Shown here: piece by piece, positions 19,978 through 53,248 of the stretch | How the letters are laid out: the number at the start of each line of letters is the position of its first letter | How positions within the stretch are numbered: position 1 is the first letter of the stretch | Assembly: GCA_008632985.1 (NCBI GenBank) | Contig: QPGO01000079.1 | Span: forward strand, 124,001-188,000 | DNA: 64,000 bases | Source: Psammoneis japonica | Lineage: Eukaryota | Direction: 5' to 3' | Translations under genes and position numbers: made by a program | The notes under the pieces: generated by a model | Database searches by the model: none | The model's input: only the letters and a program-made list of their open reading frames with translations | What the model was told of the DNA's origin: nothing

Positions 19978-20156
19978 CGTAATGCAAGCTCAAGCTGAGG
20001 TTGATGTCAAAACAAAGAAGTGAGTAGACCGAAGAGAGGGAGAGCCTAAGCGTCAGCGAACGCTGGCGAGTGCTGGCGAGCCCTCTCAAACGGCTGCGTT
20101 AATCTAATGTCCAAAATTGACACTGTGCATCAGAAGCGTGCGAGTGAGTCACTGCA
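19978..20156 (-). repeat. 3' LTR (179 bp)
   Basis: Direct repeat of 24997-25185. Adjacent CTCTTCCCTTCC is the PPT on the minus strand. Confidence 0.92.
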
Positions 20157-20274
20157 CTCTTCCCTTCCATGATCCGAAAGAACTGGAGGATCATGCAAAG
20201 GGCCAGACCAAAACCCAAAGAAATCATGCAGCAGGAGGAAACCCAGGTGTTGGGAAGAAAACCTCCTGATCAAC

Positions 20275-47830: not shown

Positions 47831-50800
47831 CAAAAGAACTCCAGAACAACAAAAATTCATGCAGAAACAGAGCTAGGTTCCCAGCAGAAACGCCAAGAAA
47901 GTCCAGAATTGTGTGATTTTTTGACATCCCTGGCACTGATTCTACACAGCTTTTTGACATTCCAGACTTTCTTGGCATTTCCACTGGGGCCCTTGCACTG
48001 CTTCCACACAAATTTGTCAATCCAGAGTTCTTTTGTGGGGCAGCATGGGGCTTGGTTTCTGGGCTTGTCAGGGCTGGATTGATTGTGCAGGTTGCTTGTG
48101 ATTGAACATGCCAGGTGTGTGGTGCCTTCATCACCAACACAACCAACAGCTTGAAACAGGACATCAAAGATGGTTGGCTGCATTGGCCACTGCAGATGCG
48201 ATGCAAACTCCAGCACACAAACTTGATCAATTTCTTAAAATTTGGCTTCACATGCTTGGATGAAAAAAAGGATGAGTTGAGCACAAGAAAGAAACAACAA
48301 TGACAGCTCAACAAAAGCAATGGACAAATCTTTCACAGCACCCATGAGAAAACTGAGGTGGTTGCTCTGCAACTCATGCACAGATGTCATCATTTGCAAA
48401 ACAACAACAATGGCTGCATTGTTTGGACTGCAATGGCACCATGCCAACCTGTGAGCCAGTTTCAAAAAGCATGCCATGATGCTTTGCCTGACTCAACATT
48501 GCAGCAACCCAAGTTCAGTGTGGCATCAGGCTGGCCTCAACTGTGGAATGCTGTCAATGCAGCAATTTGGTTCACATCGTGTGAAAACAAGTTGGGCCAT
48601 CTTGCCACTCATTTGGCTTTCTTGCAAAGCTGTTGAGAGTGAAACATGGCAACAGAACAGCTTTTTCACAAGTTGTCATGCACAACACGGAACATCCTGC
48701 TGCACTGAAATGCTTGATTAAACTGCAAGATGCTAGATGTTTGACAGTCACAGCTGCGCCCATCCAAACACATGGGCATCTTCAAGCTGTGGACATGATC
48801 CAGGCCACTCAGAGCACATCTAATGTGGTGGCACTGGCAACACTCATGTTGGCCAATGACAAGTCTGCTGGCACCATGCAACTGGCTCAAGAAGTCACCG
48901 TGCATGTTGTTGTCAACAACATGGCATGTTGTTTCATGTCAATGCATCTCAAGCTGCATTCAAAGTTTCCATTTCTTGCCAAGCACTGGGTGGCACCAAT
49001 TTGTTCAGCCTGGCAGGTGACAAAGCAAGGGCTTCCAAGGTCACTGCCTGTTTGCATGACCAGCAAACATGTCTGGATCCAGCTTCTGCTGTGGATGTTG
49101 GAACACAGGGGTGTGGTGCAGTTTTTGGATGAGCACAGACACAGACAATGTTGAAGTGAAAGTGATGCTGACAACTGCTGGTGTTGGAACATTGGGGTCA
49201 GACGCAGGTTTTGCAGGACAGACTGACAATGCTGCAGTGTGAGATGTGCCAATGATTGTGAACAATGTGGTGAATTTGTGTTCATTGCTCAGATTGAGTT
49301 GCAGGTCTTGTGCTCACTTTTTGACTTCTGCACCTGGTTGACATGGTGACAGTGGTTGGCGGCATTGGGAATGTGTTTGTGCATGTCACACGGTGAGTTT
49401 TGGGTTGGTTAGACCAAACTCAACATAAAAGCTAAAAAGCCATGGCACGACACTCAAAGGAGTGGTGTCATTCAAAGGCAAAGGCTGGGAAGTCATCCGG
49501 AATCCAAAGGCAAAGGCTGGGAAGTCAACAGGAATCCAAAGGCACATCTCATGTTGGTGGATTGTGGCAAACAAGCTGGCTGGACAAGGGCAAAGAAACA
49601 ATCTCTTGAGAGCCTTGTTGTCAAAGATGCTGTTGAGGGTCTGCAGAAAGAGGGTGTGGCAAGGTTGTGTCAGGGCCGGTGAGACTGAGTGCGTGGCTGT
49701 TGGCAAGCTGCAATGCTCAACCACAAGACATGGGCAAGGACACAGCTGAGTGCAAAAGCATGAAAGATTTGAAGGAGTGGGTGCATGTCACCACTGTCAA
49801 GTCAGGATGACAGGCAGGTGGTTGCATGGACACCATGAGGAAGATTGACAAGCATGTCAAAAGAATGTTTGGGGCCAGAGATGCAGATGCTGACATCTCT
49901 GAGACAGGAGAGCATGCCAAAGGAGCCAGACCATCTGTCGGGAGGCACCATGTCAGAGAAGGAAAAGACAATCTGGGGCAAGCAATGTGATCACCATGAA
50001 AAAGAGAGTGCAATCCACAAGACACGGAAGGTGAAAGTGCACCACATGTGTCCATCACCAGAAAATTGGTTCAAGAGATGTGTGCACAAAAATCAAGAAC
50101 ACTCAGAACTGACATCTCACACCTTCTTTGGCTGCCCAACAACTGGCATTTTCTCAATGCATCATGTGTCAGCAGCCAGATCTGTGCTGCCAAGCTTCTG
50201 CTTTGCACCCTCATTGCCAAAAGAGGAAATGACACCATCAAGTCTGATTGCCATCTTTGATCATCATGACAAAGTGTGAGACAAGATGAGATGGTGGTCA
50301 TCAGCCATCAGTGTTGGAAGAACAAACCCAAGAATGATGAGGGACAGGCTCACCTCCCTTTTGGAACACTTGGCAACTGCCAGTTGGAAATTTGTGAAGC
50401 CCAACCAAATGGGGTGGCTGCTGTGCTTCTGACTGCCACCACACTTCCATGGCAGCACAGCAAGCATGCTGCACAGGTGACAGTGTCTCCAAGAACTGCA
50501 ATGACCTGAATCATCAGTCTGCAGTTGACAGAGCAAAATGAAGATGTGCAAATGGGGCACTCTGATGCAGTGGATGCTGTTGGTTTTGCAGTGTTGCCTT
50601 GCTGACTTGGCTGGCAGACAGCACTGGTGCAGGAGAAGGCCATGAAGATGAGTCACTCATGTGCTGGACAAGGCTGAAGACAAAGACCACACAACTGTGA
50701 AGATGCGCAGCAAATGGCACTTCACAATGCACCAGAGTTTGCATGAGAGGACAAAGCCAAGAATGCTGAAAGGCACAATTTTTGAAGGCCCAAGTTGCAG

Positions 50801-53248
50801 CGGGGGCTGCACATTCTGCTGATGATCAAAAAACTGATGCCCAGCTTGTGGTGGATGCAACGCAACAAACTGTGCCACCAGTGTGCAGGTGCCAATGGCA
50901 TGGAACCTTTGGCACAACTTCTGAATGACAAGGACTCACTTGTGCTGGGCAGCTGCACATGGTGCACACTGTGTGGGGCAAGGGACAACAACAACCTGAG
51001 CTCTTTTCTCTTTTGTGTTGTGTGTCACAAGGCAAAAATGTCAATTGTCGACAACAGTGTTGGGCTTTGTCTGCAAAACACATTGAATGTTAGCTTCTTC
51101 TTGAGGCTTGAATCTGCCTCTGCCGCTGGTGTGCCTGAGGACCAGCCAGCAAAAGATCAGTCTTCCTGGTGAGCGGCATTTTTCCACTTGCCTGGCTGGG
51201 CACAATTTTGTCTCCACAACACATTGAATGAGTCATTGGCCAATTGGCACAGCATTGGGCAAGGTGTGCAAATGTTCCTTTGAATGCATTCTTTTGTGAT
51301 TGCCAACAAACTCAAGTGAGTTGAGGACAAAGTCTGACACAGGCTGCAGGCCATCCCCAACATGGTGCCCAGCAAGGTGCAGAGGAGCTTGAAGGCATGG
51401 GCAAAAAAGTGTGGCTCTGCATGGTGCAAAAAAGATGCTTCTTTGCTTGTGTGACTGCCTCACAATCTGTTGTGTTTTTGCTCTCTTGAGCCTGTCATCA
51501 TTCAGGTTCACAAACTTGGTGTGGGCTGGGTCCACCATGGCATGCAGAAAGGAGGGCAAGCTTGAGCACAAAAAGAGCGCCCTGACACAATGTGCTGCAT
51601 TGTGTTTTCTTTGTGCAAGCAGGAGATGAAATTTCTCATGTGGGCTCTGCTGCTTGCTGATGCCACACACTGCATGAGAACAAAAATGTGCAGTGCACAG
51701 CACAGCTTTGGCGGAGCTGTGGCAGCATTGTCAGCTGCCAGTGCAGCCAGCAGGGCAGAGTCAAAAGATGTCAGTGCAACAGTCATGATGACTTGTGCAG
51801 CAGCACAGCAAATTCAAAGTGACCGAACACAAACTTGTGTTTGCAAAGTGGGGGGGGGGGCAGAAATCTGATTTGAGAGAAGAGGAGCAGCCCAAAAATG
51901 AGGCTTTGGCTTTTGGAGTGGGGCAAAGTCAGAGCTGAGAAAGGCCAGGATTTGTGTGAGGCCACTCTGGGTGGTGTCGCCACTTGCAAGGAGAGTTGCA
52001 GTGGTGGTCTGTCTGCATGGTGATTTTGTGCATTTTTGCACTTTCTTCCATCCCTGCATCCCTGCGACCTCCAGCCTGATCCAGCTGGAGTCGGGTTGGT
52101 CCGGATCGGGCTGGAGGTGGCAGAGGGATGGACGAAAGTGCAAAACGTGCACAGAACTCATGCCGCATGGACAGACTGCTGATGCAACTCTCCTTGCAAG
52201 CAGTGACACCCAACTCCACAGGATTCAGTGCAGCCTGTCTTGAGCACCGTGGGTGCAATTCAGGCCCCTCGCTGTGGGAGAGTTGTTTTTGGCACCTCAT
52301 TTTTTCCCTGAGCCTGTCTTGTTTGGAGTCAATTTCTGTGCAGCCCCAGCTTGAAATGTTCCTGGAATTGCTTCAGATTCCATCAGAAAGCGGTGTTCCC
52401 AGATGTGGGTTGGGTGTTGTGAACCTGGGCACCCCTGTGGCTGCATCGTCGCAGCGCTGGCAAAGTGGGGAGGTCTTTTTGCAGAGAGCTCTGTCCTCGA
52501 CAGAGATTTGCACACCGACAGTTTGCAACTTTGGTCAGTGCAGTTGTGTGAAAGGTGTCTGGCTAAACTTCAGATTGCTGATTGCCAGCAGAGCATCTCC
52601 ACTTGTTGTTTGGCCTGACCAACCTCCCTGGATGGCATCGGACGTGGGACATCCAGTGAGGTCTGTGCGGCGCGCAGGCGGAAGAGGCGCGAGCGCGTGC
52701 AGAGCTGATGCTGCAGCGAGAAGTTGCGGAGGTCGTTCGCGCCACGCACCCAGAACACAAGAGAAACTTCCCGGATTGTTCGCGCAGCAACACGTCAGTG
52801 GCATGAAAACACGTGCTGAGCAGGTTTCAATGACAATCGTGCTGTGACGCACCAAGCCGCATGATGTTCCCAGTAGCGGGTGTAAAAACTCAAGTTATGA
52901 GTCAGTCGCGCCGCAGCAGCATCGTACGTACGAGTGGGTCACACCACAACAGCACAACGCCACTTCAACGTTGCTTGCATACGCACTTCACCTGTCTCTG
53001 ACGTGATACCTTTTAGAACTTTCCTGTGATAATTTATTTAAGGACTCGATACGACGGAACATTCCTGAAGGAGAAAGGAAGAATCCAGCCAAAGTGTCAC
53101 ATCTCTCGCAACCACTTCCTTGCACAAACAACACAAACAGTTCCTTTCCCAGGTTCATTTTTCGTTGACAACGAAATTTGAAACGACAGGATTTCATTTC
53201 CCTGCAGTGTGTTACCATTTATACAAAGTCTTTCCCTTCTTTTCAATC

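Follow-up and report, generated by a model that had tools for sequence, protein, structure and literature searches.

What removes the dinucleotide TpA from long, sharply bounded stretches of a nuclear genome and spares it in the genes next door? The question is raised by a 64-kb stretch of Psammoneis japonica DNA (contig QPGO01000079.1 of assembly GCA_008632985.1, positions 124,001 to 188,000; hereafter the window, numbered from its first letter), which contains one main and four smaller domains that are nearly devoid of TA. The main domain begins with a Ty3/gypsy long terminal repeat (LTR) retrotransposon. An earlier reading of the letters alone, the original prediction, had attributed these domains to a candidate new genome-defense system that converts TpA to TpG or CpA in repeats. 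On the evidence given below it is highly probable that a real, targeted, strand-symmetric TpA mutator has acted in this nuclear genome.

Domains were called with a two-state hidden Markov model (HMM) on the positions of TA, and the ratio of observed to expected TA (TA O/E) was also calculated in 1-kb bins. This ratio is 0.00–0.15 in every bin from 20001 to 53000 and is likewise low in the bins 1–1000, 10001–13000, 16001–17000, and 61001–63000; the remaining bins mostly lie at 0.5–1.0, with a few lower ones at domain edges. In the low-TA bins, the O/E of TG and CA is 1.3–2.4. The HMM returned five low-TA domains with a TA O/E of 0.02–0.07 and a TG/CA O/E of 1.5–2.1, and between them domains with ribosomal DNA (rDNA) and host genes, where TA O/E is 0.52–0.81; both the near absence of TA over some 33 kb plus four other domains and the normal TA next door had been predicted. 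The main domain (20106–52873 by HMM) holds 143 TAs in 32,768 bp, whereas its base composition predicts 2133 and the TA rate of the normal domains 1484; its O/E values are 0.07 for TA, 0.46 for CG, 1.65 for TG, and 1.72 for CA. In biological terms, its left limit is 19983, where the left LTR begins, so that it extends over 19983–52873. The others lie upstream of the rDNA unit (1–1050; 3 TAs, TA O/E 0.05, CG O/E 0.30), directly downstream of the 28S gene (9603–12733; 2 TAs, 0.02 and 0.15), around a frame with MYND-finger and PRiA4_ORF3-like matches (the small domain 16077–17618; 4 TAs, TA O/E 0.04), and toward the right end of the window (60778–63557; 4 TAs, 0.02 and 0.18). TA first occurs in the window at position 791, exactly as a predicted lack of TA in 1–790 requires.

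The domain borders are sharp. No TA occurs in 52565–52873, but the next ones are at 52874, 52883, and 52896, and they then recur every 10–50 bp; similarly, TA is absent from 61300–63557 and then appears about once per 20–30 bp. The G+C content is 0.49–0.53 within the low-TA domains versus 0.44–0.49 outside. The unaffected DNA provides internal controls. One is the rDNA unit at 3176–9113 on the + strand (Rfam matches to 18S at 3176–4980, 5.8S at 5220–5374, and 28S at 5712–9113), whose domain, 1051–9602, has a TA O/E of 0.81 and a CG O/E of 0.93. Another is the host gene region 52874–60777 (TA O/E 0.59, CG O/E 0.97), which encodes a TatD DNase (55365–56159, +) and a Gaa1-like protein (58733–59833, +) according to Pfam; a UCH peptidase gene at 15090–15911 (Pfam) is a further ordinary host gene in unaffected DNA.

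A mass balance of dinucleotides indicates where the TAs went. From normal to low-TA domains, the share of TA falls from 4.53% to 0.38% and that of CG from 5.40% to 2.53%, while TG and CA together rise from 14.57% to 21.08%; the share of all pyrimidine-purine steps (YpR) is 24.5% and 24.0%, respectively. The gain in TG+CA thus roughly equals the loss of TA plus that of CG, and since the YpR total is conserved, the two losses empty into one sink. Other dinucleotides barely shift, with AA, AT, and TT the same or slightly higher in the low-TA domains (for AA, an O/E of 1.25 versus 1.15 and a share of 7.41% versus 7.60%). The O/E of CG is 0.41 in the pooled low-TA domains versus 0.95 in the normal ones, and 0.15–0.62 across all five versus 0.77–1.00 outside. 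The low-TA domains therefore show the loss of CpG to TpG and CpA that is typical of methyl-CpG decay, a process that cannot account for the loss of TA. Across sub-elements of the main domain, TA O/E is uniformly 0.04–0.10 while CG O/E spans 0.16–0.74.

The direction of change can be read from the gypsy element, a heavily mutated copy at 19983–25186 on the − strand (LTR pair by self-BLAST; TA O/E 0.07, CG O/E 0.74). Its pol frame of 744 residues (20477–22711, −) matches the Pfam families RVT_1, RT_RNaseH, RT_RNaseH_2, and rve, representing reverse transcriptase, RNase H, and integrase, and contains a single Tyr. Compared with 60 homologues, Tyr makes up 0.1% of its residues versus 3.4%, Cys 5.4% versus 1.9%, and His 4.8% versus 3.0%. 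We called a column conserved if 60% or more of the 60 homologues had the same residue there, which gave 426 columns. At none of the 19 Tyr columns has the pol of the window retained the consensus residue, whereas it has done so at 340 of the 407 others. The 19 lost Tyr columns now read CAY (His) in nine cases, TGY (Cys) in eight, and CGT and GCA in one each. In a leave-one-out control, each of the 60 homologues kept Tyr at 15–24 of 18–25 such columns. The original prediction that Tyr codons have become Cys or His codons is thus borne out for this protein, but not for "TE proteins" in the plural, because the gypsy pol is the sole recognizable mobile-element protein of the window apart from the aspartyl protease of the same element (23169–23840, −; Pfam Asp_protease_2, E = 1.1e-05). 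Of 141 frames of at least 110 residues found in the low-TA domains, we scanned 130 further ones with Pfam, leaving out pol and 10 frames repeated in a tandem array; no convincing transposable-element domain beyond this protease, nor any other match beyond the MYND frame, was found in them.

Replacements elsewhere in pol carry the same stamp. All four Leu→Ser replacements read TCA, as derived from TTA, two of three Val→Ala replacements read GCA, and seven of eight first-position A→G changes (Ile, Met, Thr, or Asn to Val, Val, Ala, or Asp) are preceded by a codon ending in T. About 12 more are of the CpG type, namely Arg to Cys, His, or Gln, and G→A after C. Of the 86 conserved residues that were replaced, the two YpR processes together explain about half by our count. 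The original prediction had named family members equally free of TA and Tyr as one observation that would count against it. Among the relatives within reach of the analysis, TA O/E is 0.42–1.00 (median 0.735) for 80 related elements of metagenomic origin, and Tyr is normal in the 60 homologous proteins. As far as these relatives indicate, the TA-free state is not a family trait, and, polarized by such outgroups, the direction of change is from TpA to TpG or CpA, that is, A:T→G:C transitions. One gypsy pol homologue, P0092 (608 residues, from an assembled public run), has 1.48% Tyr, 3.62% Cys, and 4.11% His, while Tyr is at least 2.56% in the other 119 homologues listed; the protein may come from a copy that TpA mutation has altered in part in another organism.

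The two LTRs of the gypsy element show when the changes occurred. The left copy, as seen on the + strand, occupies 19983–20157 and the right copy 25002–25186 (both by self-BLAST). Their alignment over 185 columns shows 14 substitutions, every one of them within 11 YpR sites, and one 10-bp indel; 11 of 42 YpR sites carry substitutions, and no other position does. In the order left/right, the states are TA/CA at three sites, TG/TA at one, CA/TG, a double difference, at three, CG/CA at three, and CG/TG at one. The LTRs of one element are identical when made. Since their substitutions are confined to YpR sites, the YpR processes were at work once the LTRs had been made, at a pace far above that of background mutation, so at least part of the process postdates LTR synthesis. 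Because the element has a TA O/E of 0.07 while its CG O/E is still 0.74, the loss of TA must also be much faster than that of CG. At the LTR indel (20076–20077 / 25098–25107), 10 bp add one further copy to an existing tandem repeat of a short GC-rich motif.

These data also speak to the idea that the composition was inherited from a TA-poor source, or that TA is avoided under selection, for instance to escape TA-targeting nucleases or transposon insertion. TA is indeed mildly scarce in most genomes, as it is in the host domains here. However, the loss of all 19 conserved pol Tyr, including a catalytic-site position, is destructive rather than adaptive, the relatives have normal TA, unrelated sequence classes are in the same state, and the LTRs have diverged at YpR sites only. 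We consider the chance that inheritance or selection explains the domains to be negligible.

Repeated DNA of another kind lies at 28302–35453, where self-BLAST identified a tandem array of four copies of a unit of about 1787 bp that are 96.5–98.2% identical. Here, 61 of 72 substituted columns are inside YpR sites. Columns 53–54 read TG, CA, TG, and TA across the four copies, which confirms that all three states occur at one site in paralogous copies, as had been proposed. At seven sites, some copies have TG where others have CA, and 34 sites have the state sets CG/TG or CG/CA. Among the invariant sites, 8 are TA, 42 CG, 167 TG, and 159 CA.

A process with this signature has been described, contrary to what the original prediction supposed. 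The text of a preprint on the rhizarian Bigelowiella natans (Mettrop et al., bioRxiv 10.64898/2026.01.13.699255, 2026) reports 302 de novo nuclear mutations from 15 mutation-accumulation lines, 231 of which lay in two integrated regions, one of a giant virus and one of a virophage; A→G and T→C made up 230 of these 231, and every such GC-biased change was on TpA. The same text gives a rate of about 6e-7 per site per generation, an elevation of about 1000-fold, as well as 124 TpA-depleted clusters genome-wide that are enriched for reverse transcriptase and DDE domains. At the level of sequence, the window displays every hallmark of that phenomenon: A:T→G:C changes exclusively at TpA, both TpG and CpA as products, and localized TpA-depleted, CpA- and TpG-enriched clusters confined to foreign or silenced DNA beside a normal genome. 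By analogy, the process here is probably the one that was caught in those lines. The claim of a wholly new system is therefore superseded by that of a second, phylogenetically distant, and more extreme instance. Whereas B. natans is a rhizarian, the DNA here comes from a stramenopile that is probably a diatom; whereas the preprint deals with giant-virus and virophage inserts, the process here has hit an LTR retrotransposon as well as tandem arrays and anonymous repeats; and the depletion here is near saturation (TA O/E 0.02–0.07), compared with a rho of 0.45 for the nucleocytoplasmic large DNA virus region and an undepleted virophage region in its text. On the other hand, the evidence here is a fossil record only, whereas the preprint reports measured de novo mutations. 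The words diatom and stramenopile are absent from the preprint text. Apart from this preprint, our literature search found no other description of a signature of TpA depletion or hypermutation (subscription-only papers were outside its scope).

Other known mutators resemble the process in part. Like fungal repeat-induced point mutation (RIP), it is limited to repeats and transposons, consists of transitions in a dinucleotide context, has sharp limits, and destroys coding capacity. RIP, however, converts C:G to T:A, mostly at CpA, which makes TpA and lowers GC; in the window, TpA is destroyed and GC is raised. RIP also depends on duplication, whereas segments at single-copy depth are equally affected here, though these may be old diverged repeats. 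The deamination of 5-methylcytosine (5mC) at CpG likewise turns a symmetric dinucleotide of silenced DNA into TG or CA, and it co-occurs in the same domains, but it cannot remove TpA and is much slower here than the loss of TA. The statement in the original prediction that neither RIP nor 5mC deamination explains the loss of TA is upheld. APOBEC3 and AID share with the process a deaminase-type, context-specific hypermutation directed at mobile DNA; unlike these enzymes, which convert C to U on single-stranded DNA in a strand-asymmetric and clustered manner, the process here affects A:T pairs and is strand-symmetric and unclustered.

This symmetry is seen in the main domain, where TG (3455) and CA (3449) are equally frequent and follow each other in random order (runs z = +0.46). 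Their dispersion is below that of controls in windows of 100–1000 bp and similar at 2000 bp, and the strand-coordinated clustering of TG versus CA that is expected of processive single-strand deamination was not found in the main domain. The domain 9603–12733 is skewed (TG 397, CA 212, z = −3.4); it contains a tandem repeat with a composition of its own. Each TpA thus seems to have been resolved independently on either strand. Together with outgroup polarity, timing after LTR synthesis, and the sharp repeat and transposon domains, this symmetry supports the predicted region-targeted T:A→C:G change at TpA on both strands.

The random order of TG and CA argues against single-stranded editing of RNA or cDNA as well as against processive single-strand deamination. 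Editing before integration would mean that transposon RNA or cDNA was hyper-edited, by an ADAR-like enzyme on double-stranded RNA or a deaminase on single-stranded cDNA, and then integrated; domain edges that coincide with element ends would follow naturally. But editing of one strand gives only one outcome, whereas both are equal within one element (nine His, eight Cys) and overall; the two LTRs differ only at YpR sites; and DNA other than retroelements, such as tandem arrays and repeats beside the rDNA, is equally affected. ADAR hyperediting would be expected to produce A→G on the transcribed strand only and in retroelements only, which is not what the window shows. ADARs favor a 3′ G, whereas the favored 3′ neighbor here is a pyrimidine. 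In favor of this reading, a 5′ U or T preference is typical of ADARs according to the Discussion of the B. natans preprint; against it, these enzymes are described as a metazoan family in PMC6651903. On balance, editing before integration has a very slight chance of being correct.

The pyrimidine preference emerges from the few TAs that survive. As ratios of their density in low-TA to that in normal domains, ATAT and ATAC stand at 0 (0 versus 73 and 0 versus 129 occurrences), followed by ATAG (0.033), GTAC (0.037), ATAA (0.052), CTAC (0.085), GTAA (0.109), CTAG (0.132), CTAA (0.193), and TTAA (0.292). An additive model with one rate per flank, fitted on four contexts, yielded rates of 0.62 for T, 1.01 for C, 1.65 for G, and 2.34 for A; it performed well on the six contexts not used in the fit, where predicted and observed numbers were 6.4 and 6, 19.8 and 24, 24.8 and 26, 34.5 and 34, 4.4 and 0, and 1.2 and 0. 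Tyr codons identify the base pair on which the flank acts. Where a purine precedes TA, seven of eight have become CAY, and where a T precedes it, four of four have become TGY (Fisher p = 0.010 in this small sample). By these codon outcomes, the mutated pair is the one beside the influential flank, which reads R-T-A on the T strand and T-A-Y on the A strand. In trinucleotide gains relative to the normal domains, three of the four flanks fit this R-T-A/T-A-Y model and the A flank does not. An attempt to separate the effects of the −2 and +1 flanks by such gains was abandoned as too crude, the normal domains not being the ancestor of the low-TA ones. Strand independence, the T-A-Y preference, and the accompanying CpG decay are features of the window that do not appear in the Results and Discussion of the B. 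natans preprint.

Are the letters themselves correct? The signature could arise as an artefact if a long-read base caller misread a modified TpA base in heterochromatin, T as C and A as G, and the conflict between strands were settled as TG or CA in the consensus; this would likewise give equal TG and CA without strand clustering, and sharp edges. A public sequencing run, X1, contains 81% of the sampled words of 47001–57000. Its contigs cover 46532–47941, 47918–49478, and 49969–51860 at a word depth of 57–62, the same as that of host genes, and differ from the assembly in 5, 12, and 10 letters, respectively. Were TA truly present, about 60–90 differences would be expected per contig. Such agreement, with 5–12 differences per 1.4–1.9 kb across 46532–51860, is at odds with misread bases, and a depth of about 60 at 31-letter words would imply accurate reads. 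Moreover, the four array copies agree on TG or CA at 326 sites and conflict at seven, and, according to the preprint text, the same signature arises de novo in Illumina-sequenced B. natans lines. An artefact is thus very improbable, and the TG and CA bases are very likely genuine. Among the matches listed (40 of 1134), 16 of 21 low-copy differences between the window and X1 are transitions that fall in YpR sites; examples are TA/CA at 47480 and at 47599, and TG/TA at 47277. In the contig covering 46532–47941, three of the five listed differences are at TA sites. The differences listed for 46532–48222, nearly all of them transitions at YpR sites, may be allelic and hint at a recent or still-active process. 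A further run, X2, whose kind could only be guessed, covers parts of the window, leaving most of the low-TA domain uncovered, and nothing was drawn from it.

What guides the process to these domains? Decay of CpG is what CpG methylation usually leaves behind, and the TpA process would accordingly track silenced DNA. Repetition seems to be dispensable at present. In the bins 46672–48672 and 50007–52674, word depth is mostly about 60–100 (176 in one bin) and TA O/E is 0.04, although these may be old diverged repeats; for comparison, word depth reaches thousands in 38–46 kb and is about 60 in the flanking single-copy genes. Present-day repetition would accordingly not be needed for the loss of TA.

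We propose the following scheme. In chromosomal DNA and in place, TpA is very probably converted to TpG or CpA, that is, A:T to G:C on either strand, by a process that is confined to silenced repeat and transposon DNA and halts within tens of bases of neighboring genes. It runs far faster than the methyl-CpG decay that co-occurs in the same domains, and it leaves behind DNA that is nearly free of TA, poor in CG, and doubly rich in TG and CA, in which every Tyr codon is lost and coding capacity is destroyed. As this loss is irreversible, the effect would be defense-like, and the process may serve genome defense. In the favored form of this scheme, an enzyme recruited to CpG-methylated or silenced chromatin would deaminate adenine to hypoxanthine, which is read as G, with the preference 5′-T-A-Y-3′ (TAT ≥ TAC > TAG > TAA) and with the A of either strand hit independently. 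Adenine deamination is the simplest chemistry, because a T→C change would need an amination, for which there is no simple route. The natural substrate of TadA, U33-A34-C35, has the T-A-Y context, and the observed preference is compatible with a TadA/ADAT2-like adenine deaminase. The known adenosine deaminases, namely TadA and ADAT2-3 acting on A34 of tRNA, ADAR, and engineered TadA editors, likewise convert A to I, read as G, next to a 5′ U or T; unlike these, which act on RNA or, in engineered systems, on single-stranded DNA, the enzyme sought here would have to act on both chromosomal strands and be targeted at the level of chromatin. The authors of the B. natans preprint, in its text, also propose an ADAT2-like deaminase and cite an amphioxus ADAT2 with DNA activity. 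All in all, we give adenine deamination a chance that falls just short of even.

Several points weigh against this scheme or limit it. We know of no established enzyme that deaminates adenine in duplex DNA in cells, and no deaminase domain is encoded in the 64-kb window according to Pfam. A mirror-image chemistry, in which a mutagenic change occurs on the T of R-T-A, would match all of the sequence statistics equally well. CpG methylation of the low-TA domains is itself read from CpG decay. Action in place is shown for the gypsy element alone, and we infer it for the high-copy repeats and the array; because the array copies share their TG and CA states, most of the TA loss there predates amplification or homogenization. 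Finally, X1 probably derives from the same sample as the assembly, which makes its confirmation strong but not fully independent.

The mirror-image chemistry could take the form of a mutagenic thymine mark. A TET/JBP-type dioxygenase, or a similar enzyme, would modify T at TpA in silenced DNA, via 5-hydroxymethyluracil (5hmU) to 5-formyluracil or to a base J-like product, and occasional pairing with G would cause T→C at R-T-A on either strand, just as 5mC decay erodes CpG. That both self-complementary YpR steps, TpA and CpG, drain to one sink in the same domains is expected of two symmetric heritable marks, and the flank preference can be read as one for a purine on the 5′ side of the mutated T. 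G is a mispairing partner of 5-formyluracil, and the telomere repeats of kinetoplastids carry base J at TpA. According to the text of PMC11572971, TET/JBP homologues produce 5hmU in dinoflagellates, where it has a silencing effect on transposons, and older work cited there found T to be preferentially replaced in TA and TC dinucleotides. A thymine mark that is enriched on transposons, with a TA/TC preference, is therefore on record within the SAR supergroup (stramenopiles, alveolates, and rhizarians); 5hmU and base J are modifications, however, and not sequence changes, and the text of PMC11572971 reports no mutational footprint. Base-resolution mapping of 5hmU in Breviolum revealed no sequence motif, as stated in the text of PMC11071213. 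In addition, the bursty, line-specific activity that the preprint text reports for B. natans (11 of 15 lines, with 2–45 mutations each) is more like an episodic enzyme than a slow, constitutive decay. A thymine mark is unlikely on this evidence, though far from negligibly so.

The original prediction had also listed error-prone patch repair among the candidates. In this scenario, T:G mismatches derived from 5mC would call in non-canonical mismatch repair together with a Pol eta-like polymerase, which would wrongly place G opposite T at WA motifs, as happens during the A:T phase of somatic hypermutation. Pol eta has a hotspot for A→G at TA, and the CpG decay in the same domains would supply the triggers. 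This candidate fits poorly, however: WA includes AA, yet ApA is undepleted, so that the joint mutation of TA and AA expected of Pol eta is not seen; in the gypsy element, the youngest here, the loss of TA far outruns that of CpG, its supposed trigger; and Pol eta patches would scatter other errors, whereas the LTR pair has no substitution outside YpR sites. Patch repair therefore has only a slight chance of being the cause.

A broader reading joins adenine deamination and the thymine mark. TpA may be a second CpG-like site, at which a chromatin-guided system, with either a natural double-stranded DNA adenine deaminase or a heritable mutagenic thymine mark, acts on the palindromic TpA of silenced duplex DNA. 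Such a system would be shared by stramenopiles and rhizarians as an old eukaryotic defense that permanently erases the Tyr codons and TA-containing signals of invaders. We regard this as possible, if speculative, and as holding clearly less than an even chance. What the window adds to the B. natans work is a set of constraints: the process acts after integration and independently on the two strands, prefers TAY, covers the same domains as CpG decay, and would do without present-day repetition. If the process is the same as in Bigelowiella, the defense strategy would be present in at least two deep SAR branches and would hit retrotransposons and satellites besides integrated viruses. A second lineage also makes the enzyme findable by comparative genomics, as genes shared by the carriers and absent from algae without the signature. 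A natural enzyme that performs A:T→G:C conversion at a defined motif in duplex, chromatin-packaged DNA would be new biochemistry and of interest for base editing.

The loss of TA has consequences for annotation. On the two strands of the main domain, the stop triplets TAA (62 + 70) and TAG (39 + 43) add up to 214, compared with 1599 for TGA (807 + 792). Because TAA and TAG are nearly gone, the domain is packed with long open frames of up to 744 residues, almost all of which have no Pfam match and are not to be taken as genes. TA-free DNA in general will give long false reading frames, mutated transposon proteins will lack Tyr, and repeat ages calculated from CpG or overall divergence will be wrong in such domains. 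At 38001–46000, word depth in X1 sums to thousands, and no protein domain was found there with Pfam; these anonymous TA-free sequences are very high-copy families of the genome.

The left part of the window (1–12733) shows TA-free, CpG-poor DNA on both flanks of one complete rDNA unit with normal TA and CG. Since the ordinary UCH gene follows at 15090–15911, this rDNA unit is a lone or terminal copy and not the interior of an array. The domain downstream of it includes a tandem repeat of about 460 bp at 10006–11380 (88–89% identity by self-BLAST). Concerning the host, the closest named homologues of the TatD DNase are from diatoms, and in a small tree the protein joins the raphid pennates with a support of 88/89; the UCH frame has no match above 63% identity. 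The TatD results suggest that the host is a stramenopile and probably a diatom, with moderate support for the latter. Between the host genes, the frame at 16825–17745 (+) matches a MYND zinc finger and, weakly, PRiA4_ORF3 in Pfam and contains 3 Tyr, 19 Cys, and 18 His in 307 residues; the frame may derive from a mobile or foreign gene that has been mutated. An unnamed zinc-finger domain is among those that the text of the B. natans preprint (bioRxiv 10.64898/2026.01.13.699255) lists as enriched in TpA-depleted genes.

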